In this document: positions 1-10,029 of the stretch, in pieces | Position numbering within the stretch: the first letter of the stretch is position 1 | Layout: each line of letters starts with the position of its first letter | Assembly: GCA_040751955.1 (NCBI GenBank) | Contig: JBFMFY010000007.1 | Coordinates: 23,949 to 87,948, forward strand | DNA length: 64,000 nucleotides | From: Bacteroidota bacterium | Lineage (GTDB): Bacteria > Bacteroidota > Ignavibacteria > UBA10030 > UBA8401 | Direction: 5' to 3' | The notes under the pieces: generated by a model | Told to the model about the DNA's origin: nothing | The model's input: the letters and a program-made list of their open reading frames with translations, nothing else | The model's database searches: none | Translations under genes and position numbers: made by a program

Positions 1-8
1 CATGTTCT

Positions 9-3000
9 GTGACTGAATTTCAATTCTCGATAGACCAAAATAAGCCCCGTAACACATTTTCTCTCAACGGTACGTGGAAAATTTCCGGCGGCGATGAAAA
101 AGATGTTCCAAAGGAATTTACCTCGACGATTCCTGTCCCTGCTGTCGTCGATATGGCTGTTCCGGCATACGATTGGCAGAGGTTCAATTTCCATTGGTAT
201 CGCACTTCGTTCGTAGTTGACGGTCTTTCCGACAGACAATGTATGTTCCTGAAAATTTCCCAGAGCATGTTCGGCACAGAAGTGTGGTTGAACGGTCATC
301 ACCTCGGCGGTTCGATCAGTTGCTACACATCGCACGAATATCCGTTGCACGATTTTTTGAATCGTAACGCTTCGAATGAATTGATCGTCCGCGTTGGTGC
401 AAAACATACACTTCCCCCTGAAAGCGCAGTCGGCAGAGACCAGGAAAAGGAAATGTACACGCCGGGAATTTGGGGTGATGTATCGCTCGAGTGTACCGGC
501 GCCGCGCGTGTGAAACTTGTGCAGGTGATTCCTCACATTGAATCTGCAACTGCTGAAGTACGAGGATGGATTGAAAATCTCATTTCACAACATCAGACAC
601 TTTCTGTTTCGGCAAAAATCATCGAGAAGAAATCCCGCGAGCCGGTTTCATCCGATCATACGGCGATGGTTTCTGTTGCCCCACACTCTGCTGGTCAGGT
701 TGTGTTTCTGATTCCGATTCAGAATATAAAATTATGGTCGCACGAAACGCCGTTTTTGTATGAGGTAGAAGTCGGTGTTTTTTGCCCATCCCCAACCCCT
801 TCCCAAAGGGAAGGGGCAAGCCAAACGCAAAGTCTTTCTTTAGGCGAGGGTAGATATGGTTACCAAACTGCCGATACAAAAGTATATCATTTGCTTGAAC
901 AGTTTGCAAAAGAACATCGAAAAAATCCGACGCAAGCGGAAGCAGTTTTATGGGAGCGTTTGAAATCTAAAGCACTTGAAAATTATAAGTTCAGAAGACA
1001 ACATATAATAGGAAGATATATTACAGATTTTGTTTGTCTGTCAAAAAACCTTGTTATAGAAATTGATGGGTTAATTCACCAGTTGCCGGAAAACAAAGAA
1101 AACGATGGGATTAGAACACAATGGTTGGAGGAGCATGGGTATCGAGTCATTCGATTCTCGAATGAGGAAGTACTGCAAAATCTCGATGTCGTATTGAACA
1201 AAATTTTAGAGGCTTTAAAAGTCCCCTCCTTTGGAGTGGATTTAGAGGAGGCGTGGGAGGATCTAGGTAGGGCGTGTTTCGGCATGCGCGAATTTAAAAT
1301 AGTCGGCTCCGATTTTTATTTGAACGGGAAAAAGATTCTCCTTCGCGGCGGCAACATTGCGTTCCACAGATTTCTTTCGGACAAACAACGGCAATTGCTG
1401 CCGTGGGATGAGCGGTGGATCAAAAAAGCACTGATTGATATTCCGAAAGAGCACAATTTCAATTTCTTCCGCAATCATCTCGGTCAGATGTACAACAAAT
1501 GGTACGATATCGCCGATGAATACGGCATGTTGATACAGAATGAATGGCAATTCTGGTGTGCAACGGGGTCTGATACTCAAATACGAAAAGAGTTCACGGA
1601 GTGGCTGCATGACAATTGGAATCACCCGAGCATCATCATGTGGGATCCGCTGAATGAATCGAGCGATGACACAGTGCAGAATGAAATCGTGCCGGAGATG
1701 AAGAGACTTGATCCGACCCGGCCGTGGGAATCGGTCGATTTTCTTGAGGAGCATCCGTACATCTACTCGCTCGGTATGGTCTTAAACGACCATAAGTTCG
1801 GTTTTGCACGGTCACTCAATGAGATAGAGCATCTTTCCGTTCCATCGATGGTGAATGAATTCTTGTGGTGGTGGTTCAATGACAAATGGGAGCCGACCGT
1901 GCTCACGAAAGAAATTGTTGAACGCTGGATGGGAAGAAATTACTCCAAAGAAGATATCGTCGTTCACCAATCCTTTCTTGCGCAGGAATTGATAGAACTC
2001 TTTCGCAGGTTGCGCGTTAAAGCGATCCAGCCGTTCGTGTACATCAGCAACAACGATGGTCCGACCGCACATTGGTTTCTTGGCGACATTAAAGACCTGC
2101 AACCGAAGCCGGTGTTACAAGCGATCAAGAACGCATTCGCCCCATTCGGCGTCAGCATTGAATTGTGGGACAGGCATTTTGTTGTGAATGAACATCGTGT
2201 ATTACGAATTTTTGTTTTCAACGACTCGCAGTCGGTACGAAGCGGTACATTATCCTTTGGAATACAATCGTCGGACGGCACGTGGGTTTCAAAAAAAGAA
2301 ATTCCTGTCATTGTTGATCCTGTGGGTGATAAAGTTGTACCGCAGGAGATCGTATTTCCTGAAACAGGAGGAGAGTATTCCATTTGTGCAGAGTTGCAAG
2401 AAAACTCGTCCGTTCTTGCTATCAGCACAAAGATCGTGCATGTGTTTGAGAAACCTCAACCCCCGAATATGAAGAAAAATATTGTCGTTCTCGATCCGTC
2501 AAACGAAATCAACGAGTTTCTTTCCGGAATAAATATCCGGTGTACGGATTTTGGAGATGGATTTACTGCTGCCGGAATTGTTTTGACTCACGGGGATGTT
2601 TTCTCGAATCAAGTGTATCAGCGGCAGCAGAGAGCGCTATCCGATTTTGTAAAAAATGGCGGAACAGTTGTGTTGATTGAACCTGAATTCCGGGTTGTTG
2701 GCAGCGCCGTGCACACTGTTGTTGATGGCATCGATCTGAAAATTTCACACCGCGCCGACCTTGATAAAGGGGGATATGATTCGTACGTTTTTGCCGAAGA
2801 TCATACGCATCCGTTGTGGAAGAATATCACAAAAGAACACCTGAAGTTTTTCAACGGTGCGTACGGCGGTGAGATTGTCTCGCAGTATGATGTTGATTTC
2901 TCTGTACCCTCAAAACGATTGGCGAGCTGCGGAATGCATCTCAATGTTGTCGCTGCTTCCGAAGTGAGATATGGAAAAGGGAAGATCATTCTTTTCCGTC

Positions 3001-3107
3001 TGCAATTGCGCGGAAGATTAAAGCAACAATCGCAATCCGAATCGTTGTATGCTCGCAGAACCGATCCGGTTGCACAGCAGTTGCTGTGTAACATCATCGA
3101 ATATTGA
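9..3107 (+). CDS. Glycoside hydrolase family 2 protein (beta-mannosidase/beta-galactosidase-like), 5' end probably outside the window. It carries an in-frame DUF559 endonuclease-like insertion of about 164 aa between the beta-sandwich and TIM-barrel domains.
   Basis: The N-terminal part shows GH2 sugar-binding/Ig-like beta-sandwich sequence and has no signal peptide. The ORF opens with GTG at the window edge, so it is likely truncated. After the insert comes the typical GH2 'FGxRxxxxxxxxFxLNGKxxxLRG' stretch and a TIM barrel with 'WDPLNES'. The middle segment (about nt 783-1275) is homologous to the DUF559 ORF at 7540-7977. Confidence 0.7.
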   Translation: MTEFQFSIDQNKPRNTFSLNGTWKISGGDEKDVPKEFTSTIPVPAVVDMAVPAYDWQRFNFHWYRTSFVVDGLSDRQCMFLKISQSMFGTEVWLNGHHLGGSISCYTSHEYPLHDFLNRNASNELIVRVGAKHTLPPESAVGRDQEKEMYTPGIWGDVSLECTGAARVKLVQVIPHIESATAEVRGWIENLISQHQTLSVSAKIIEKKSREPVSSDHTAMVSVAPHSAGQVVFLIPIQNIKLWSHETPFLYEVEVGVFCPSPTPSQREGASQTQSLSLGEGRYGYQTADTKVYHLLEQFAKEHRKNPTQAEAVLWERLKSKALENYKFRRQHIIGRYITDFVCLSKNLVIEIDGLIHQLPENKENDGIRTQWLEEHGYRVIRFSNEEVLQNLDVVLNKILEALKVPSFGVDLEEAWEDLGRACFGMREFKIVGSDFYLNGKKILLRGGNIAFHRFLSDKQRQLLPWDERWIKKALIDIPKEHNFNFFRNHLGQMYNKWYDIADEYGMLIQNEWQFWCATGSDTQIRKEFTEWLHDNWNHPSIIMWDPLNESSDDTVQNEIVPEMKRLDPTRPWESVDFLEEHPYIYSLGMVLNDHKFGFARSLNEIEHLSVPSMVNEFLWWWFNDKWEPTVLTKEIVERWMGRNYSKEDIVVHQSFLAQELIELFRRLRVKAIQPFVYISNNDGPTAHWFLGDIKDLQPKPVLQAIKNAFAPFGVSIELWDRHFVVNEHRVLRIFVFNDSQSVRSGTLSFGIQSSDGTWVSKKEIPVIVDPVGDKVVPQEIVFPETGGEYSICAELQENSSVLAISTKIVHVFEKPQPPNMKKNIVVLDPSNEINEFLSGINIRCTDFGDGFTAAGIVLTHGDVFSNQVYQRQQRALSDFVKNGGTVVLIEPEFRVVGSAVHTVVDGIDLKISHRADLDKGGYDSYVFAEDHTHPLWKNITKEHLKFFNGAYGGEIVSQYDVDFSVPSKRLASCGMHLNVVAASEVRYGKGKIILFRLQLRGRLKQQSQSESLYARRTDPVAQQLLCNIIEY
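783..1275 (+). mobile_element. DUF559 (Vsr-like endonuclease fold) cassette inserted in-frame into the GH2 gene. It is bracketed by GC-rich hairpins: CCCCTTCCC-aaa-GGGAAGGGG at about 796-816, and CCTCC..GGAGG at about 1224-1258.
   Basis: The segment 'YHLLEQFAKEH...WERL...RRQHIIGRYITDFVC...IEIDGLIHQ...RTQWLEEHGYRVIRFSNEEV' aligns at roughly 40% identity with the standalone DUF559 ORF at 7540-7977. The flanks translate to the 'PSPTPSQREGA' peptide class seen as 'SSPLPPQGGGK' and 'SSPVPPQGEG' at the second copy. There is no stop codon and the host reading frame is preserved. Confidence 0.55.
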
Positions 3108-3121
3108 ACATAAGGAATACC

Positions 3122-3853
3122 ATGAAGACCATTGTCGCAGTCATCCTCGTTATTTCTTTTTTTCTGCTTACCGGCTGTTCAGCATCGAAAGAGTGGACAC
3201 TTGCAACCGGTCAGCATCCGCACAGTTTTGAAAAGGAAGTCGTAAAAAAAGCGTCGTTGAATTTTCTCCTGTATCTTCCGAAAAATTACGGAGAACCGGG
3301 CAAAACGTATCCGTTGCTGATGTTTCTTCACGGTTCCGGTGAAAGAGGAAACGACCTCAACAAATTGAAAGTGCACAGCATTCCGAACATCGTTGATGGG
3401 AAAGACGATTTTCCATTCATCGTGGTTTCGCCGCAATGTCCCGAAAGTAAACGATGGGATGCGGAAGAATTAAATCTTTTACTCGACGATATCATTGCGC
3501 GATTGCCGATCGACACGACGCGTGTGTATCTTACCGGCTTAAGCATGGGTGGATACGGCACGTGGAAATTTGCTGCAGCGTATCCCGAACGATTTGCTGC
3601 AATTGCACCGGTCTGCGGCGGCGGCACGCTTGAAGACACGTGGCGCTTGCGCGACATGCCTGTATGGGCATTTCACGGAGCAAAAGATGATCTCGTTCTG
3701 CCGATTGAGAGCGAACGAATGATCGAGTCATTGAAACGGATGGGAAACACGAAAGTGAAATATACAGTATATCCCGAAGCCAATCATAATTCGTGGGATG
3801 CAACCTACGCAAATCCCGAACTGTATGAATGGTTCCTTCAACACAAAAAATAA
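3122..3853 (+). CDS. Secreted lipoprotein alpha/beta-hydrolase (carbohydrate esterase or predicted peptidase, COG4099-like).
   Basis: ATG at 3122 is preceded by an aaggaat RBS. The signal/lipobox is 'FLLTGCS'. 'FLHGSGERGND' and the nucleophile elbow 'GLSMGGYG' are present. The TTG at 3104 given by the ORF track overlaps the upstream stop and is less likely. Confidence 0.65.
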   Translation: MKTIVAVILVISFFLLTGCSASKEWTLATGQHPHSFEKEVVKKASLNFLLYLPKNYGEPGKTYPLLMFLHGSGERGNDLNKLKVHSIPNIVDGKDDFPFIVVSPQCPESKRWDAEELNLLLDDIIARLPIDTTRVYLTGLSMGGYGTWKFAAAYPERFAAIAPVCGGGTLEDTWRLRDMPVWAFHGAKDDLVLPIESERMIESLKRMGNTKVKYTVYPEANHNSWDATYANPELYEWFLQHKK

Positions 3854-3863
3854 ATTGGACGCT

Positions 3864-6107
3864 ATGAGAAATACAATACTGAAAATCTTTTGTGCTGCAC
3901 TTGTTGTCTGTGGTGCACTGTTGGCGCAGTCCCCGGTGCAACTTCTTTCGCCGCCGACGGAAGCGAAGATCGATTCTATCATCAAACTGATGACGACAGA
4001 AGAGAAGCTGGGGCAATTGAACCAGATCGGCGGAACATGGTATGACACAAAAACAGAACGGCTGAACGAAGAGCAGACCGAGCTCTTAAAAGCCGGGAGT
4101 ATTGGATCGTTTCTCGGCATCAATGGCGCGGCTGAAACGGGAAGGATACAACGAATTGCGATGGAAGAAACACGCATGAAGATTCCCGTGCTGTTCGGTG
4201 CGGACATCATTCATGGTTTCCGTACAATCACGCCGATACCTCTGGCTGAGGCAAGTTCGTGGAACCCGGAACTGGTTGAACGCTCTGCACGCATTGCTGC
4301 AATTGAAGGTGCATCTGCCGGTGTGCATTGGACGTACGCACCAATGGTGGACATTGCACGCGATCCGCGCTGGGGAAGAATTGCCGAAGGGTCCGGTGAA
4401 GATCCATATCTCGGCTCGGTAATGGCAGCGGCACGAGTGAAAGGATTTCAAGGAAAGAATCTTTTGGAATTCGGTTCTCTGCTTGCGTGTGCAAAACATT
4501 TTGCAGCATACGGCGGTGCAGAAGCAGGGCGGGATTACAATACGGTCGATATGTCCGAACGAACATTGCGCGAAGTCTATCTTCCTCCGTACAAAGCAGC
4601 AATTGATGCAGGTGCATGGACACTCATGAGTGCGTTCAATGAAATCGGCGGCGTGCCGAGTTCCGGAAGTCACTGGCTGATGACAGATCTGCTGAGAAAA
4701 GAATGGGGATTCAAAGGATTGGTTGTGAGTGACTACACAGCGATCATGGAATTGCTGAATCATCGTATTGCCAAAGATAGCACCGAAGCGGGGATTGTCG
4801 GGCTCTCCGCGGGAGTTGACATTGACATGGTGAGCAGAATTTATATCTATAAACTTGCCGAAGCTGTCCGCACTGGAAAATTATCCGAAGAAATTGTCAA
4901 CGAAGCGGTACGAAGAGTGCTGCGGGTGAAATTTGCATACGGTTTGTTTGACAATCCGTACCGCAATGCGAATCCGGAGAAAGAAAAAGAGCTGCTGTTG
5001 CATAAGGATCATCGCGCTGTTGCGCGGGAGATGGCGCGGCAATCCATCGTGCTGTTGAAGAATGAACGCACGCTTCTTCCACTTGATAAAGCCACAAAAA
5101 AAATTGCACTCATCGGTCCATTGGCTGGAAACGAACATCGCCGCGATCTTGCCGGTGCATGGGCATGGGTTCAAAATCCTGACGATGTTGTTTCGGTTAT
5201 CGAAGGTATTAAATCTAAAATTTCTCAAACGGCAAAAATATTGTATGATAAAGGATGCGAGATCGAATCCGATTCCGGTGCACGTATTTCACAGGCGGTA
5301 AAACTGGCGAAACAATCGGATGTCGTGATCGCGGTGTTGGGAGAGTCGCAGCATGTGAGTGGCGAGGCGGCGAGCAAAACGAATCTTGATCTTCCGTCCA
5401 TGCAAAAAGAATTGCTCAAAGCATTGCACAAAACGGGCAAACCGATCGTTCTTGTGGTGATGAACGGCCGTCCCCTCACGCTGCAATGGGAAGCAGACAA
5501 CATCCCTGCAATTGTTGAAGCGTGGCATCTCGGTGTTGAAACAGGCAACGCACTTGCCGACGTACTGTTTGGCGATTACAATCCGAGCGGCAAATTGCCG
5601 GTCACGTTTCCCCGAAGCGTCGGACAAATTCCGATCTACTATAACCACAAAAACACCGGACGCCCGATGACAGCGAGTGACAAATACACATCCCGATATC
5701 TCGATTCGCCGAACTCGCCGTTGTATCCATTCGGGTACGGACTTTCGTACACAACATTTGCGTACAGCAATCTGAAAGTTTCTTCTTCATCTATTAAAAA
5801 AAATCAAACCATCACTGTTTCCGTTGATGTGGAGAATACGGGAATACGGAGCGGCGATGAAGTCGTTCAATTATATATCCGTGATGATGTTGCAACAGTA
5901 ACACGCCCGGTGAAAGAATTGAAAGGGTTCAAAAAAATCCCGTTGAATCCGGGTGAAAAGAAAACCGTCGAGTTTACGTTGACGCCGGACGATCTTTCGT
6001 TTTATAATCTTGAAATGAAAAAGGTTGTAGAGGCAGGTACATTTACTCTCTTCGCAGGCGGAAATTCTGAAGACTGCATCGAAACGAAGTTCGAGGTAAC
6101 AGAATAA
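3864..6107 (+). CDS. bglX: Periplasmic beta-glucosidase, glycoside hydrolase family 3 (BglX-like).
   Basis: ATG at 3864 is followed by a signal peptide, 'MRNTILKIFCAALVVCGALLAQ'. The GH3 N-terminal domain carries the nucleophile motif 'GFKGLVVSDY', and GH3 C-terminal and FnIII-like domains follow. The longer ORF beginning at 3798 overlaps the previous gene. Confidence 0.85.
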   Translation: MRNTILKIFCAALVVCGALLAQSPVQLLSPPTEAKIDSIIKLMTTEEKLGQLNQIGGTWYDTKTERLNEEQTELLKAGSIGSFLGINGAAETGRIQRIAMEETRMKIPVLFGADIIHGFRTITPIPLAEASSWNPELVERSARIAAIEGASAGVHWTYAPMVDIARDPRWGRIAEGSGEDPYLGSVMAAARVKGFQGKNLLEFGSLLACAKHFAAYGGAEAGRDYNTVDMSERTLREVYLPPYKAAIDAGAWTLMSAFNEIGGVPSSGSHWLMTDLLRKEWGFKGLVVSDYTAIMELLNHRIAKDSTEAGIVGLSAGVDIDMVSRIYIYKLAEAVRTGKLSEEIVNEAVRRVLRVKFAYGLFDNPYRNANPEKEKELLLHKDHRAVAREMARQSIVLLKNERTLLPLDKATKKIALIGPLAGNEHRRDLAGAWAWVQNPDDVVSVIEGIKSKISQTAKILYDKGCEIESDSGARISQAVKLAKQSDVVIAVLGESQHVSGEAASKTNLDLPSMQKELLKALHKTGKPIVLVVMNGRPLTLQWEADNIPAIVEAWHLGVETGNALADVLFGDYNPSGKLPVTFPRSVGQIPIYYNHKNTGRPMTASDKYTSRYLDSPNSPLYPFGYGLSYTTFAYSNLKVSSSSIKKNQTITVSVDVENTGIRSGDEVVQLYIRDDVATVTRPVKELKGFKKIPLNPGEKKTVEFTLTPDDLSFYNLEMKKVVEAGTFTLFAGGNSEDCIETKFEVTE

Positions 6108-6146
6108 TGTTTTAACACACAGGCACGATGTATCTAATTTTTTTCG

Positions 6147-7454
6147 TTGAAAAATAAAACTCTATATATAGCGCTTGCTCTCTTGTCCATAGTTACTCTT
6201 CGCTGCAACAGATCAACAGATGCCGTCACCGTCATCAAATTCTGGGGATTAGGAAACGAAGGTGAGATGGTTGTGCCGCTCATCAAAGAATTTGAGCGCC
6301 GGAATCCGACCATCAAAGTGGAGATGCAGCAGATACCGTGGACTGCCGCGCATGAAAAATTGCTCACTGCGTACGCCGGAGAATCGACGCCGGATGTCGG
6401 TCAACTGGGAAATACCTGGCTGCCCGAATTCTCCGTCCTCAACTCGCTTGAGCCGCTTCATCCCTTTGCAAAAAATTCGGCATTTGTCGATCTCAACGAT
6501 ATTTTTCCAGGTGTGTTGAAAACGAATATTATTGATTCGGTTTTGTGCGGGATTCCATGGTATGTTGATACGCGCGTGGTGTACTATCGTAAGGATGTGT
6601 TGAAACAGGCAGGCTTTGATGAGTTTCCTAAAACGTGGGATGAGGTGTTGAAAGCATCCGAAATCATTCAACGTCAGGCAAAAGCGAAGAATAAAATCTG
6701 CTACCCATTCTTCCTTCCGACCAATGAATGGGTCCCCGCGATCGCGCTCGGGATGCAATCCGGCGGAAATTTCCTGAAGAACAAGAACTCGCAGGGAAAT
6801 TTCAGCGGAGAACAATTCAGCAAAGCGTTCACATTGTTGAATGAATTTTACCGCAGGCAGTACTCGCCGTCGGGAATGCAGTTGATCACCAACCTGTACA
6901 ATTCGATCTCCGACGGATTGATCACTATGTACATCACCGGTCCGTGGAATATCGGGGAATTTACCAGGCGCATTCCCGCGCATCTGCAGGATGAATGGAT
7001 GACCGCGCCGTTGCCGTCGATGGATTCGCAATTGCCCGGCACGTCGCTTCCGCTCGGCACCAGTCTCGTGATCTTCAAAAATAGCAAACATAAAGATGCT
7101 GCATGGAAGCTGATAGAATTTCTTTCCTCCGTTGAACAAACGGTTGAGTTCTACAAAATTACCGGCAATCTGCCGCCGCGGCAGTCGGCGTGGAATGATT
7201 CATCGTTGTCAAACAATAAATACATCAAGGCGTTCTACCGGCAGTTGCAGCGCGTCGATCCGCTGCCGCAGATTCCCGAATGGGAACAGATTGTGATTCG
7301 GTTGCAAACGTATGTTGAATACATTGCGACAGGCACGATGACAGTTGAACAAGCGCTGAAACAATTTGACGGTGAAGTAGATGTGATGTTGGAGAAACGA
7401 AGGTGGTTGGTGGAAAAATCCTCCCCCTTACCCCCTCAGGGAGGGGGAAAATAG
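6147..7454 (+). CDS. ABC transporter sugar-binding protein (solute-binding protein family 1, MalE/UgpB-like).
   Basis: The start is TTG with an N-terminal signal/lipobox ('TLRC'). SBP_bac_1-like sequence runs throughout. The last 11 aa ('SSPLPPQGGGK') are encoded by the hairpin repeat of the adjacent DUF559 cassette. Confidence 0.8.
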   Translation: MKNKTLYIALALLSIVTLRCNRSTDAVTVIKFWGLGNEGEMVVPLIKEFERRNPTIKVEMQQIPWTAAHEKLLTAYAGESTPDVGQLGNTWLPEFSVLNSLEPLHPFAKNSAFVDLNDIFPGVLKTNIIDSVLCGIPWYVDTRVVYYRKDVLKQAGFDEFPKTWDEVLKASEIIQRQAKAKNKICYPFFLPTNEWVPAIALGMQSGGNFLKNKNSQGNFSGEQFSKAFTLLNEFYRRQYSPSGMQLITNLYNSISDGLITMYITGPWNIGEFTRRIPAHLQDEWMTAPLPSMDSQLPGTSLPLGTSLVIFKNSKHKDAAWKLIEFLSSVEQTVEFYKITGNLPPRQSAWNDSSLSNNKYIKAFYRQLQRVDPLPQIPEWEQIVIRLQTYVEYIATGTMTVEQALKQFDGEVDVMLEKRRWLVEKSSPLPPQGGGK

Positions 7455-7977
7455 TGGGAGGTTTTGCGGTGTGTAATGTTTTAGAAAAATGTTAAGTCTC
7501 ATTTTTCCCCTCGTAGAGGGGGATTAAGGGGGAGGAGTTGTGAATCAGGAAAAAGCCGGGAAAGACAACCACTACGGATATAACAGCAGACTACAACCAT
7601 TTGCGCGGGCGAACAGAAATGGGATGACGAAAGCCGAAGCATGTCTGTGGAAATATGTTCTGCGTGCGGGAATGATGAAAGGGTACGGTTTTCGGCGCCA
7701 GCGTCCGGTGCTGAACTATATAGCAGATTTTATGTGCAAGGAATTGATGTTGATAATTGAAGTCGACGGCTTCACGCATCAATTTGAAGAGACGATCAAG
7801 AAAGACAAGATCAGGCAACAGCGATTGGAAGAGGCAGGGTTTATTGTGTTGAGATTTACTGATGATAACGTGCTACATAGTATTGAAAACGTTCGTCAAC
7901 AAATTTTGTTTACTGTTGAGACGATCGAAAAGCGAAGGGGAATTTCCTCCCCCGTACCCCCTCAAGGAGAGGGATAG
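7421..7977 (+). mobile_element. DUF559 endonuclease-like cassette with flanking GC-rich hairpins, inserted between the SBP and permease genes.
   Basis: Three hairpins bracket the cassette. The first is CCCCCTC-agg-GAGGGGG at 7430-7450. The second is CCCCTC-gta-GAGGGG followed by GGGGGAGGAG at 7503-7536. The third is CCTCCCCCGTACCCCCTCAAGGAGAGGG at 7946-7975, at the gene's 3' end. The cassette sits between co-oriented SBP and permease genes. Confidence 0.55.
7540..7977 (+). CDS. DUF559 domain protein (Vsr-like / restriction-endonuclease-fold family).
   Basis: The 145-aa product contains 'LW..L....GYGFRRQRPVLNYIADFMC....IIEVDGFTHQ........RQQRLEEAGFIVLRFTDDNV', typical of PF04480. It starts with GTG, or possibly at an internal M. 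Confidence 0.7.
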   Translation: MNQEKAGKDNHYGYNSRLQPFARANRNGMTKAEACLWKYVLRAGMMKGYGFRRQRPVLNYIADFMCKELMLIIEVDGFTHQFEETIKKDKIRQQRLEEAGFIVLRFTDDNVLHSIENVRQQILFTVETIEKRRGISSPVPPQGEG

Positions 7978-8004
7978 TTGTTAGATCAATTTAAGTTTGT
8001 ACCC

Positions 8005-8889
8005 ATGTTCAACAACACCCGCACCGCCGCCGCATGGATCTTTCTCTCTCCCGCCATGGGAGTGATCGGAATATTTTTTGTTTTGCCCGTGCTCGCGGCA
8101 TTCGTGCTCAGTTTTACCGACTTTGATATATACGCACTTGGCAATTGGGATTATATTCGCTTTGTCGGATTTCAGAATTATGTCAGAATCATCGAAACGC
8201 CGCTCTTCTGGAAGGCACTGAAAAATACATTCTACTTTGTTCTGGTCGGCGGACCGTTATCTGTTGCTGTTTCCCTCGGAACTGCGCTAATGTTGAATTC
8301 GAAACTCGCAAAGTTCAGGTCGCTGTACCGCACAATCTATTTTCTGCCTGTCGTTTCTAGTCTCATTGCAGTAGCGATCATCTGGCGTTACCTCTATCAT
8401 CCTGCGCATGGCATTCTCAATTACCTTCTGTCGCAATTCGGCATTGCGCCGATCGATTGGCTTGGCGATCCCGACATTGCAATGCCGGCAATCATTCTTA
8501 TGGCGGTGTGGAAGAACTTCGGATACAACATGCTCATCTTCATTGCCGGTCTTCAAAATATTCCCGACGATCTGTATGAAGCGGCGCATCTGGACGGCGC
8601 AAGTTGGTGGCAGCAGTTCAAAGAGATCACGATACCAATGTTGAAGCCGACCACCGTCTTTGTCGTGATGATCACGATCATCGGTTACTTTCAATTATTC
8701 GCCGAACCGTACGTGATGACGCAGGGGGGACCGTTGAATTCTACGACGAGCATTGTGTTGTTGATGTATGAGCAAGGATTTCGCTGGTGGAGCATGGGGT
8801 ATGCTGCTGCGATTGCATTTGTTCTGTTTGCCATAATTTTAGTCTTTACGGTTGTTCAAATGTTTCTGCAACGAAGCGTGCGACAGTAA
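8005..8889 (+). CDS. Carbohydrate ABC transporter permease (MalF/UgpA-like).
   Basis: Six TM segments are predicted and the EAA loop 'EAAHLDGASWWQQFKEITIPMLKP' is present. The start is ATG at 8005 ('MFNNTRTAAAWIFL'). Confidence 0.8.
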   Translation: MFNNTRTAAAWIFLSPAMGVIGIFFVLPVLAAFVLSFTDFDIYALGNWDYIRFVGFQNYVRIIETPLFWKALKNTFYFVLVGGPLSVAVSLGTALMLNSKLAKFRSLYRTIYFLPVVSSLIAVAIIWRYLYHPAHGILNYLLSQFGIAPIDWLGDPDIAMPAIILMAVWKNFGYNMLIFIAGLQNIPDDLYEAAHLDGASWWQQFKEITIPMLKPTTVFVVMITIIGYFQLFAEPYVMTQGGPLNSTTSIVLLMYEQGFRWWSMGYAAAIAFVLFAIILVFTVVQMFLQRSVRQ

Positions 8890-8894
8890 CAATT

Positions 8895-8976
8895 AAGTCA
8901 TCCGATGAGTGTATTAAATTCTTATGATAAGTCTGGGAAATCGTGCGCATCAAAGTAGTGATTCATCGGATGACTT
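8895..8976. repeat. Perfect 14-bp inverted repeat with a loop of about 54 nt (AAGTCATCCGATGA ... TCATCGGATGACTT), in the intergenic region between the two permease genes.
   Basis: The arms at 8895-8908 and 8963-8976 are exact reverse complements of each other. Confidence 0.7.
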
Positions 8977-8990
8977 CTTTCTAAAAACAA

Positions 8991-9812
8991 ATGAGTAAAA
9001 GAGCAACACAAATACTTCTCAACATCGGATTGCTGCTAATCGGGTTGACGACGCTTGCACCCGTTCTCTGGATGGTGTCGGCATCATTGATGGCGTCCGG
9101 AGAAGCGGGAACATTTCCGCCGCCGATGCTGCCCAAACAGCCGACGATCGAACATTATCTCGCATTGACCGAACGGCTGAATATGGGGAGATACTTCCTC
9201 AACAGTTTCATCATCGCAAGTGCAGCAACGCTCATTTCCACACTCTTGAATTCAATGGCGGGATTTGCTTTCGCTAAGTATCATTTCAAAGGAAGGGATA
9301 AATTATTCAACATGCTGCTTGGTGGTTTGGTCGTACCGGCGCAGGTAACAATGCTGCCACTCTTTCTGATGTTGAAAACGATGGGATTCGTCAACACGTA
9401 TGTGGGGGCGATTATTCCCGGCATGGCGAGCATCTTCGGAATATTTTTAATACGACAATTTGTAATTGCAATTCCTGACAGTTTAATCGAAGCGGCGCGT
9501 ATCGACGGCGGAAGCGAATTCAGAATTTACCGTACCGTTATTCTTCCGCTCTGTCGTCCTATTCTGTTTACACTCGCACTCTTTACATTCATGGGAACGT
9601 GGAATGACTTCATGTGGCCGCTGATCATCATGACCGATCAATCCAATTACACGCTGCAGGTGGGACTTGCAAGTCTTATGGGTGAACACACGCTCGATCT
9701 CGAACTGATGATGGCGGGCTCGGTCATTACCATCATTCCCGTCCTTGCCTTGTTCCTTCTCTTCCAGCGCCACTATGTTCGCGGCATTATGGTGGGCGGG
9801 GTGAAAGAGTGA
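8991..9812 (+). CDS. Carbohydrate ABC transporter permease (MalG/UgpE-like).
   Basis: The EAA motif 'IEAARIDGGSEFRIYRTVILPLCRP' is present and six TM segments are predicted. Confidence 0.8.
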   Translation: MSKRATQILLNIGLLLIGLTTLAPVLWMVSASLMASGEAGTFPPPMLPKQPTIEHYLALTERLNMGRYFLNSFIIASAATLISTLLNSMAGFAFAKYHFKGRDKLFNMLLGGLVVPAQVTMLPLFLMLKTMGFVNTYVGAIIPGMASIFGIFLIRQFVIAIPDSLIEAARIDGGSEFRIYRTVILPLCRPILFTLALFTFMGTWNDFMWPLIIMTDQSNYTLQVGLASLMGEHTLDLELMMAGSVITIIPVLALFLLFQRHYVRGIMVGGVKE

Positions 9813-10029
9813 CATTCATTGTTTGCAACTCAAGTCCTCTCTGTGTGTTGGGAATGTGTGAAAGGGAGAGGGGATTGAGGGATGTGTAAAAAATTAAAAG
9901 AACAATAAAGACTGTTAACTGTATTGTAGTATTTCAAATTTGAAGGAATAACACACCCCTTGCGCCTCTCACCAACACTACAAGCCAATGCTGGAGAGGG
10001 GAATTTGAATCTTAAAAGAGATTGTTAGT

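Follow-up and report, generated by a model that had tools for sequence, protein, structure and literature searches.

How can a complete nuclease domain come to lie within the reading frame of a glycosidase gene, and what becomes of the enzyme that carries it? This question is raised by the beginning of a 64,000-nt stretch of DNA from a Bacteroidota bacterium (GenBank assembly GCA_040751955.1, contig JBFMFY010000007.1, positions 23,949 to 87,948 of the forward strand), which we refer to as the window and on whose plus strand all features given below with window coordinates are located. There, a divergent gene of the glycoside hydrolase family 2 (GH2) type (9-3107) encodes a protein of 1032 aa, insert included, which is interrupted by a DUF559 nuclease cassette (784-1277). 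Our analysis indicates that this cassette probably derives from a mobile element and belongs to a family with in-frame, free-standing and miniature forms, whose members would have moved through the joint action of their nuclease and the recombination and repair functions of the host.

An earlier note on this locus, made from the sequence alone, had recognized an in-frame, stop-free DUF559 module of about 164 codons within the GH2 gene. Indeed, the open reading frame (ORF) 9-3107 is open throughout, the insert (783-1275) amounts to 164 codons in the frame of the host without any stop and, when taken alone, it matches the Pfam profile PF04480 with 125.7 bits (E=9e-37; cut-off 20.6). Its GC content is 41%, versus 46-47% in the host flanks. 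The cassette as a whole consists of a nuclease ORF placed between terminal inverted repeats that are imperfect, about 33 nt in length and translated as linkers rich in Pro, Ser and Gly. The left one (784-816; GCCCATCCCC-AA-CCCCTTCCC-AAA-GGGAAGGGG) is made up of a C-box followed by a perfect 9-bp hairpin, CCCCTTCCC-aaa-GGGAAGGGG at 796-816, which is exact and unique in the window, 0 chance matches being expected; the repeat is translated as PSPTPSQREG in the GH2 frame and, on direct reading, none of its six frames holds a stop codon. The stop-free DUF559 core (855-1220; YGYQTAD...KILEALK) is a Vsr-like PD-(D/E)xK nuclease, as recognized by Pfam and by the residues invariant in the family, and the insert keeps T26, E29, W33, R48, Q49, D58, C61, E69, D71, G72, H75, D84, R87 and R100. 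On the other side, the right repeat (1222-1253; TCCCCTCC-TTT-GGAGTGGA-TTTA-GAGGAGGCG) is decayed, runs from hairpin to G-box and is translated as PSFGVDLEEA, its hairpin (TCCCCTCC-ttt-GGAGTGGA at 1222-1240) having one mismatch. The GC-rich hairpins that had been described as bounding the insert are thus present, but they are parts of inverted repeats and not mere boundaries.

Loci L001, L002, L003 and L085, which carry the insert at the same GH2 site, show a better-kept right end (TCCTCCCC-wTT-GGGGAGGA-TTTA-GGwGGGGC), and the window copy departs from these alleles by its decayed right repeat, by the segment 1254-1274 and by 38 extra nt after the left repeat (817-854, encoding SQTQSLSLGEGR) that allele comparison finds in this copy only. 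These 38 nt might perhaps represent a decayed second, right-type hairpin module, as hinted at by the resemblance of SLSLGEG to the ALSFGEG of a miniature element at locus L092 described below. The segment encoding WEDLGRAC (1254-1277) takes the place of the native last beta-strand, which reads xEDxxxTT in the uninterrupted proteins P0005 and P0004, and the DNA of its first 21 nt (1254-1274) agrees with the right repeat's outer half in 15 of 18 nt. As a side observation, L002 (4777-4815; GGGGTTTTTGG) and L003 (4774-4812; GGGGTTTTCGG) have a T-run behind the perfect 9-bp hairpin of the left repeat, whereas the window copy has none; this arrangement looks like an intrinsic terminator inside a coding sequence.

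The uninterrupted relatives of the GH2 protein show that the DUF559 segment is foreign to this family. A search with the spliced host protein retrieved 1031 relatives, most of them of about 880 aa and devoid of DUF559, with some 1000 orthologues lacking the insert. In about 75 of the best 120, for which the spacing was examined, the spacing between PFLYE and FGMR amounts to exactly 23 residues (the consensus being YEVELTVQEGKNxLDxxRTTFGMR), a stretch that forms the last beta-hairpin of the Ig-like domain. This constant spacing locates the insertion point in the turn of that hairpin, 8-9 residues before FGMR, and not exactly at the junction between the beta-sandwich and the TIM barrel, as the earlier note had placed it. 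Neither is the GH2 sequence simply contiguous across the insert, as had also been claimed: in insert-bearing alleles part of the native 23-residue stretch has diverged or has been replaced by element-derived sequence, and the codons adjacent to the junction co-vary with the presence of the insert (EISIxx or KIGINS versus ELTVQE). Two alleles from the same study, one filled (P0037, locus L085) and one empty (P0006, locus L086; CTGTATGAAGTTGAATTGACTGTGCAAGAAAGGAAGAATCCG...), show a DNA identity of 92.8% on one side of the site and 86.1% on the other. The filled allele has 19 diverged nt, the element and 3 nt in place of 51 native nt, and homology between both alleles resumes in the conserved PFLYE and FGMREF codons.

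DUF559 was found at this same GH2 site in six proteins, i.e. the window protein, P0003, P0007, P0037, P0072 and the more distant P0033 (host parts 58-62% identical), and the synteny of the loci identifies the insert-bearing proteins as true orthologues. The segment is therefore shared by five orthologues only, and on a host tree computed with the insert masked the carriers are interspersed with non-carriers, P0033 lying far from the others; in P0002 (locus L004) just the left and right ends are left, in decayed form and without a nuclease gene in between. On account of the 23-residue spacing in about 75 orthologues and of this patchy distribution, a native GH2 domain was rejected. It could also be thought that an acquired DUF559 has since been domesticated, being now functional in the GH2 lineage or acting as a repair nuclease that uses the host gene for its expression. 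The strong purifying selection acting over a long vertical history, with all invariant residues kept, the failure to observe the decay expected of a fixed homing endonuclease, and the cellular, DNA-repair-like role of a DUF559 protein in Caulobacter (PMC12907096) are all in line with such a function. However, we regard it as unlikely in view of the roughly 1000 orthologues without insert and of the close relatives with empty or decayed sites; besides, the same cassette occurs in enzymes of unrelated chemistry, which makes a host-specific role implausible, and its inverted repeats and miniature derivatives point to mobile DNA.

The selection and the vertical history invoked above can be read from the divergence of the alleles. 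Nei-Gojobori counts between the window, L001, L002 and L003 yielded, for the host, a proportion of synonymous differences (pS) of 0.69-0.80 at 54-77% aa identity, with a ratio of nonsynonymous to synonymous substitution rates (dN/dS) of 0.05-0.10 where dS could be estimated, and, for the DUF559 core, pS of 0.74-0.88 and a proportion of nonsynonymous differences (pN) of 0.10-0.155 at 72-82% aa identity. Since synonymous sites are saturated in insert and host alike, the insert is as old as the divergence of these lineages. In addition, the GH2 inserts are monophyletic and their topology, (L003,(window,(L001,(L002,L085)))), is that of the host tree; together with the saturation, these matching trees rule out a recent horizontal acquisition in the GH2 lineage. 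The sequence comparisons thus indicate that the GH2 insertion is ancient and has co-diverged with its host mostly vertically, not as a recent invasion, and that the insert is under strong purifying selection as a protein, as is the host itself.

Two outcomes had been envisaged for the interrupted enzyme, tolerance of the 164-aa insertion or inactivation, and the evidence favours the former. The 1032-aa host protein, in which no signal peptide was found, contains the Pfam domains Glyco_hydro_2_N (60-160), Glyco_hydro_2 (167-257), DUF559 (297-403; 123.6 bits, E=4e-36, cut-off 20.6) and Glyco_hydro_2_C (430-576); its frame is open already from base 3 of the window and the true start may therefore lie upstream. 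Membership in GH2 is borne out by the presence of the sugar-binding, Ig-like and TIM-barrel domains and of the Glu-bearing NE motifs, the catalytic pairs N549-E550 and N616-E617 being invariant in 76 orthologues, carriers included. The structure of the fusion was modelled with AlphaFold 2 (AF2), resulting in a mean pLDDT of 83 and a pTM of 0.79. In this model the host domains are predicted with pLDDT above 90 and match solved GH2 structures with E=1e-36, at an identity of only 12-16%, whereas residues 259-289 and 405-415 appear as disordered linkers; the strand 416-424 (WEDLGRACF) pairs with 251-258, closing the Ig-like beta-hairpin. The insert shows an alpha/beta nuclease-like secondary structure of low pLDDT, because the AF2 alignment held host orthologues only. 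The gene belongs to an operon conserved between the window (1-10000) and L001-L004, which comprises a GH94 gene, two GH144-type 'glycoamylases', the GH2-like gene, sometimes an esterase, a GH3 gene, and an ATP-binding cassette (ABC) sugar transporter consisting of a solute-binding protein and permeases; it has the appearance of a locus for the utilisation of beta-glucan, possibly beta-1,2-glucan. The NCBI name of the window protein (P0001), 'MAG: DUF559 domain-containing protein [Bacteroidota bacterium]', which P0007 and P0072 share, refers to the insert and so masks the glycosidase function of the host.

That the GH2 copy is inactivated, an effective pseudogene whose frame has stayed open by chance, is in turn very improbable. 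A 164-aa insertion near the TIM barrel could certainly disturb folding, and in one carrier allele (P0037; L085 455-3544) the protein is 770 aa long and a separate ORF of 253 aa after it aligns with the C-terminal part of intact orthologues, which reflects either a frameshift, an assembly error or a decaying carrier allele. Nonetheless, dN/dS of the host remains at 0.05-0.10 between insert-bearing lineages despite saturated synonymous divergence, the NE motifs are invariant, the place in the conserved glycan-utilisation operon has been kept, the AF2 model folds the host domains confidently, and genes of the essential, single-copy type carry the same kind of insert. The low dN/dS, the invariant NE motifs and the intact synteny speak strongly for an insertion that is tolerated; judging from sequence and model together, the presumably cytoplasmic host enzyme has most likely kept its function, flexible linkers letting the nuclease loop out.

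Tolerance would be easier to understand if the insert were removed after transcription or translation, as an intron-like element, by ribosome bypass or by self-excision of a protein without Hint domain, particularly for the insertions described below that affect essential enzymes and sometimes fall inside domains. The predicted RNA fold of L002, in which a C-box/G-box stem flanked by both hairpins closes the cassette (z = -2.3), could also be read along these lines, and by pairing the repeats may enable removal or bypass of the insert at the level of the RNA. Yet all 72 embedded copies of the family are in-frame on both sides and free of stops, and selection for such a state is expected only if ribosomes read through; this universal condition argues that the insert is translated and stays in the protein. 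The repeat-coded residues that replace a native beta-strand in some alleles lead to the same conclusion, and the flanks are merely about 10-30 aa long. An intein was discarded: as the earlier note had stated for the splicing motifs, there is neither a match to a Hint domain in Pfam nor a His-Asn pair, and the junction residues are variable (C, S or R at the N-terminal junction; V, I, H or C at the C-terminal one), with no conserved nucleophile. A known intron or RNA family was likewise rejected as far as curated families are concerned, a search of positions 600-1500 against Rfam returning only a noise-level hit to SmY (E=0.24). Post-transcriptional or post-translational removal has accordingly very little to recommend it. 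As to the expression of the nuclease, none of the GH2 alleles has an in-frame ATG or GTG at the N-terminus of the core or shortly upstream, and the sole in-frame start-type codon nearby is a TTG inside the core itself; with such a start-less core the nuclease can only be made within the GH2 polypeptide.

The GH2 cassette is not an isolated case. A DUF559 profile scan of species-representative genomes retrieved 588 relatives, and the 80 closest loci, all kept for analysis, hold 81 related copies in Bacteroidota. As many as 72 of these 81 lie in-frame and stop-free within ORFs that are open for at least 100 codons on both sides, while seven are free-standing, mostly in Prevotella and other Bacteroidales. 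Among the hosts is the methionine synthase MetH, interrupted at three sites, namely the cap/B12 linker (31 of the 80 loci) and two positions of the activation domain; others are MetG (two sites), IleRS, ValRS, a LeuRS-like enzyme, adenine deaminase, acetyl-CoA synthetase, UvrA and an IcmF-type mutase, and protein matches add CinA, IspG, RNase H, a cupin and an alpha/beta hydrolase. Some insertions are within domains, as in the anticodon domain of MetG and the activation domain of MetH. All hosts identified by Pfam domains or motifs belong to cytoplasmic enzyme families, localisation being deduced from the family, and seven host ORFs have no identification. The cytoplasm is where a DNA nuclease must act. 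Carriers include the isolates Winogradskyella sediminis DSM 28134, Flavobacterium frigidimaris DSM 15937, F. cucumis DSM 18830, Croceitalea vernalis and two Marivirga species; given these cultured organisms, the family is not an artefact of metagenome-assembled genomes. Phages rarely carry it, with a relative of 35-43% identity in only 3 of 50,697 phage records.

Residues T26, E29, W33, D84, R87 and R100, which are outside the patterns used in the scan, are invariant in 87 of 87 cores, and the family profile matches the PDB entries 3hrl (E=1.4e-31) and 3r3p, the homing endonuclease I-Bth0305I (E=2.3e-7). Several further observations were made on individual members. One Flavobacterium MetH (L045) carries two in-frame cassettes, at 2549-2905 in the cap/B12 linker and 3794-4153 in the activation domain, whose cores are not each other's closest relatives. 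A contig that binning had assigned to 'Candidatus Nitrotoga' (Betaproteobacteria; L065) encodes a MetH with the same cassette and 90% identity, in the host segments compared, to that of Flavobacterium L048, and it is probably a mis-binned Flavobacterium contig. Beside some cassettes (P0216, L062, L060) hairpin-coded peptide modules occur in tandem, e.g. as three copies of SPPLEGLGEVLELDSKSI or two of NSLPLGGRAGDGA; it may be that such modules undergo duplication themselves or act as targets for more insertions. Finally, some DUF559 fragments bear the JGI labels 'methionine synthase', 'guanylate kinase' or 'RecG', which probably reflect host genes interrupted in the same way.

The window itself holds a free-standing member. 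At 7540-7977 a standalone DUF559 ORF of 145 aa with a GTG start, recognized by Pfam, is 40% identical to the insert over 119 aa (E=7e-29), and hairpins of the same class adjoin both ORFs, in agreement with what had been noted before. Directly upstream of its start lies a unit of about 119 bp without nuclease gene (7419-7537), which begins with a left-type repeat detected by the hairpin scan (7419-7451; TCCTCCCCC-TTA-CCCCCTC-AGG-GAGGGGG-AAAA) and ends with a right-type repeat (7503-7537; CCCCTC-GTA-GAGGGG-GATTAA-GGGGGAGGAG) whose architecture is the reverse complement of the former. The left-type repeat supplies the C-terminus SSPLPPQGGGK of the ABC solute-binding protein (ORF 6147-7454), which is DNEQ* in L001, and the C-terminus of the standalone DUF559 itself, SSPVPPQGEG (nt 7945-7973), is encoded by a third copy of the repeat, which agrees with 7419-7447 in direct orientation at 26 of 29 nt. 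The entire block 7417-7977 is inserted at the junction between the solute-binding protein and permease genes, a site that is empty in L001, where both genes overlap, and in L003, where they abut. Scanning the 64 kb for hairpins retrieved only four C-run hairpins, all adjoining the two DUF559 ORFs, and a fifth, imperfect one (7945-7973) was spotted by eye; hairpins of this kind as general repeats of the genome can thus be dismissed, since in the window they are confined to the neighbourhood of these ORFs.

What the family has in common besides the nuclease are the repeats. The peptides flanking every copy are of the (A/S)P.PP(K/Q/E)G and (P/S)P(L/S)G.GGA types, which are translated C-run/G-run hairpins with the DNA consensus 5'-AGCCCCCC-N2-4-CCCCCC-loop-GGGGGG ... 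CCCCCC-loop-GGGGGG-N2-4-GGGGGGCT-3'. Such hairpins flank the 81 copies on the left in 62 cases and on the right in 75, the repeats being 23-54 bp long. Left and right ends of one locus resemble each other's reverse complement (median score of 28, versus 19 for ends of different loci), and the hairpin loops are exact reverse complements between ends in 26 of 58 loci, versus 9.5% in cross-locus controls; for rare loops (aac/gtt, gac/gtc, gtg/cac, acaag/cttgt and others) complementarity is seen in 12 of 36. In the GH2 lineage, the window, L001, L002 and L085 share 32 identical nt of the left repeat, from which L003 departs by a single change in the loop. As this sequence has remained unchanged despite saturated synonymous sites, the constraint must act on the nucleotides and not on the protein.

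The repeats also exist without the nuclease. The exact 32-nt left repeat of the GH2 cassette recurs in JGI metagenomes at 10 loci, all of them outside GH2 genes. In L087, L091, L092 and L096, orthologous genes for RlmB-like SpoU methylases contain an in-frame repeat-only element of about 75 bp between the substrate-binding and methylase domains, which reads HPQPLPKGKG...ALSFGEGLGEA, a frame different from that used in GH2; other in-frame elements of about 75-80 bp, read in the PSPTPSQREG frame, occur in a solute-binding protein (L089/L094) and a CitE/HpcH lyase (L093). The remaining loci with the exact repeat bear solo left repeats without a long ORF through them, and repeat-only elements also occur in intergenic DNA. 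Three forms can thus be distinguished in this large family: autonomous copies in-frame within conserved cytoplasmic enzymes, free-standing ones between genes that have a start and a stop of their own (7540-7977 being an example), and repeat-only derivatives of about 75-120 bp that may also be in-frame. The selfish cassette proposed in the earlier note therefore gains support from a segment foreign to the host family, inverted repeats, miniature elements and relatives lodged in-frame in unrelated enzymes.

Signs of movement are seen in MetH. At the cap site the identity of hosts and that of cores are correlated with r=0.52 only, with incongruent pairs such as Marivirga and Aquimarina (host 57%, core 72%) or two Flavobacterium species (host 85%, core 55%). 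In the core tree the MetH activation-domain copies are nested in the Flavobacterium cap-site clade, and the Chitinophagaceae copies from AdeC and the two MetG sites fall together; such grouping by taxon of cores from different sites implies occasional colonisation of new ones. These data bear on the possibility that DUF559 acts as a classical site-specific homing endonuclease, which would cut the uninterrupted allele and let break repair copy the cassette, the repeats being just linkers or relics. Host/core incongruence at the MetH site would be expected in this case, as would the clustering of cores largely by site, the filling of one site across distant taxa (for example the MetH linker), presence/absence polymorphism at a single site, and junction codons that co-vary with the insert in a manner reminiscent of co-conversion; furthermore, the nuclease family includes the proven homing endonuclease 3r3p (PMC3239194). 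What homing does not require are inverted repeats, and yet they are conserved at the nucleotide level amid saturated synonymous sites, their left and right ends co-vary down to the loops, intergenic free-standing copies bear them too, and miniature elements with the exact left repeat populate unrelated genes and intergenic DNA. At least 15 different host sites are filled, with switches of site within taxa, and the domain of about 120 aa has no additional DNA-binding module, unlike I-Bth0305I. Pure homing is thus a possible but doubtful account of the family. The nucleotide-level conservation of the repeats, their co-varying ends and the enzyme-free derivatives lead us to favour a repeat-directed mode, comparable to that of the RAYT/REPIN systems discussed below.

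On these grounds the following scenario can be proposed for the cassette as a mobile-element derivative. The nuclease would be made solely as a passenger of the host protein and would probably recognise the hairpin repeats and/or the empty target site, nicking or cutting the DNA, after which host recombination and repair would copy or move the cassette. A DUF559 protein has been reported to cause DNA damage in Caulobacter (PMC12907096). Miniature derivatives would be mobilised in trans, and recombinational repair would keep the repeats uniform. Within genes, the surviving insertions would be those that preserve the frame and settle in tolerant loops or linkers. The GH2 cassette itself would have been acquired long ago and then inherited mostly vertically, its presence/absence polymorphism being open to reshuffling by homologous recombination in the conserved flanks (PFLYE, FGMREF). 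Homing-like gene conversion between filled and empty alleles probably plays a part as well.

A number of points weigh against this scenario. In contrast to anatomy, residence in the frame, age and selection, which are read directly from the alleles, as are the family-wide pattern and the miniature derivatives from the other loci, the activity of the nuclease, its substrate and the mode of movement are inferred. No target-site duplication is evident at 34 well-defined element ends or in the comparison of filled and empty alleles, the exact boundaries being uncertain. Neither does the element encode a transposase of a known class (DDE, HUH, Ser or Tyr), DUF559 being its only ORF, and to our knowledge PD-(D/E)xK nucleases are by themselves incapable of strand transfer. 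Complementarity between the left and right repeats of the GH2 element reaches only about 70%, and the left one is far better conserved, which a model with symmetric ends does not explain. Saturation and congruent trees reveal no sign of recent transfer in the GH2 lineage, so that this copy could be immobile and its nuclease kept for another reason. Concerning the family-wide counts, the 72 embedded among 81 copies describe the subfamily closest to the insert and not DUF559 overall, the interrupted aminoacyl-tRNA synthetases were counted without regard to second intact copies in the same genomes, and the scan patterns themselves account in part for the invariance of D58, E69, D71 and H75 among the 80 loci.

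Comparison with known systems helps to define what the element is. Like inteins with a homing endonuclease, it sits in-frame at conserved positions of cytoplasmic proteins that are themselves conserved and for the most part essential (tRNA synthetases, MetH, UvrA), with a nested nuclease whose expression depends on the host, a patchy distribution among orthologues and long persistence. Unlike inteins, it has no Hint domain, junction nucleophiles or His-Asn and apparently stays in the mature protein, and it possesses DNA inverted repeats and repeat-only derivatives, which inteins lack. In the Rickettsia palindromic elements (RPEs; Ogata 2000/2002, reviewed in PMC10969869) palindromic DNA is inserted in-frame in unrelated genes and translated at tolerant sites. 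The repeat-only elements of about 75 bp in the methylase, the solute-binding protein and the lyase, as well as the L004 footprint, behave in the same way as RPEs or other intragenic transposable elements of the miniature inverted-repeat type (MITEs). However, RPEs are found in a different host phylum and encode no enzyme, whereas the full-length cassette holds a conserved nuclease between its repeats, which are C-run/G-run hairpins.

The nuclease moiety relates the cassette to I-Bth0305I and other 'EDxHD' Vsr-like homing endonucleases of 'fractured genes' (PMC3239194, PMC2677866), VSR, DUF559 and DUF2726 forming one clade of the nuclease superfamily (PMC3424549). Both are selfish and tied to conserved genes, but the EDxHD enzymes are multidomain, reside in group I introns or between split-intein halves, are translated apart from the host protein, come from phages and marine metagenomes and have no inverted repeats. 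In its general organisation the cassette is reminiscent of REPtrons, in which a RAYT (REP-associated tyrosine transposase, i.e. an IS200/IS605-like TnpA) is accompanied by hairpins of the repetitive extragenic palindromic (REP) type: a small nuclease gene is flanked by inverted GC-rich hairpins, many enzyme-free hairpin pairs (REPIN doublets) occur elsewhere, inheritance is vertical over long periods and the enzyme is under purifying selection. RAYTs are nonetheless HUH/Y1 enzymes acting on single-stranded DNA and REPs are extragenic, in contrast to a PD-(D/E)xK nuclease whose copies are predominantly intragenic. The cassette therefore combines features of inteins, RPEs, EDxHD/Vsr-like endonucleases and REPtrons, and is a member of none of these groups.

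No published description of in-frame DUF559 cassettes was found in the literature searched. Whether the family amounts to a hitherto undescribed class of mobile elements, defined by a Vsr-like nuclease between stop-free, linker-encoding repeats, permanent in-frame residence and MITE-like derivatives, and widespread in Bacteroidota, is in our judgement evenly balanced. At the practical level, the interrupted MetH, MetG and IleRS genes pose an annotation problem, as they are likely to be mislabelled or split in databases like this GH2 gene. If our interpretation is correct, protein engineering would profit from the permissive sites catalogued here in MetH, several tRNA synthetases, UvrA, GH2 and further enzymes, and the nuclease and its hairpin repeats would constitute a new pair that could have a definable DNA specificity. 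It would also provide the large DUF559 'domain of unknown function' family with a biological role. Selfish DNA is known to reside inside essential genes by being spliced out, introns from the RNA and inteins from the protein. The DUF559 cassettes would then represent a third strategy, that of never leaving, in which the element brings its own flexible linkers and settles only in tolerant loops.

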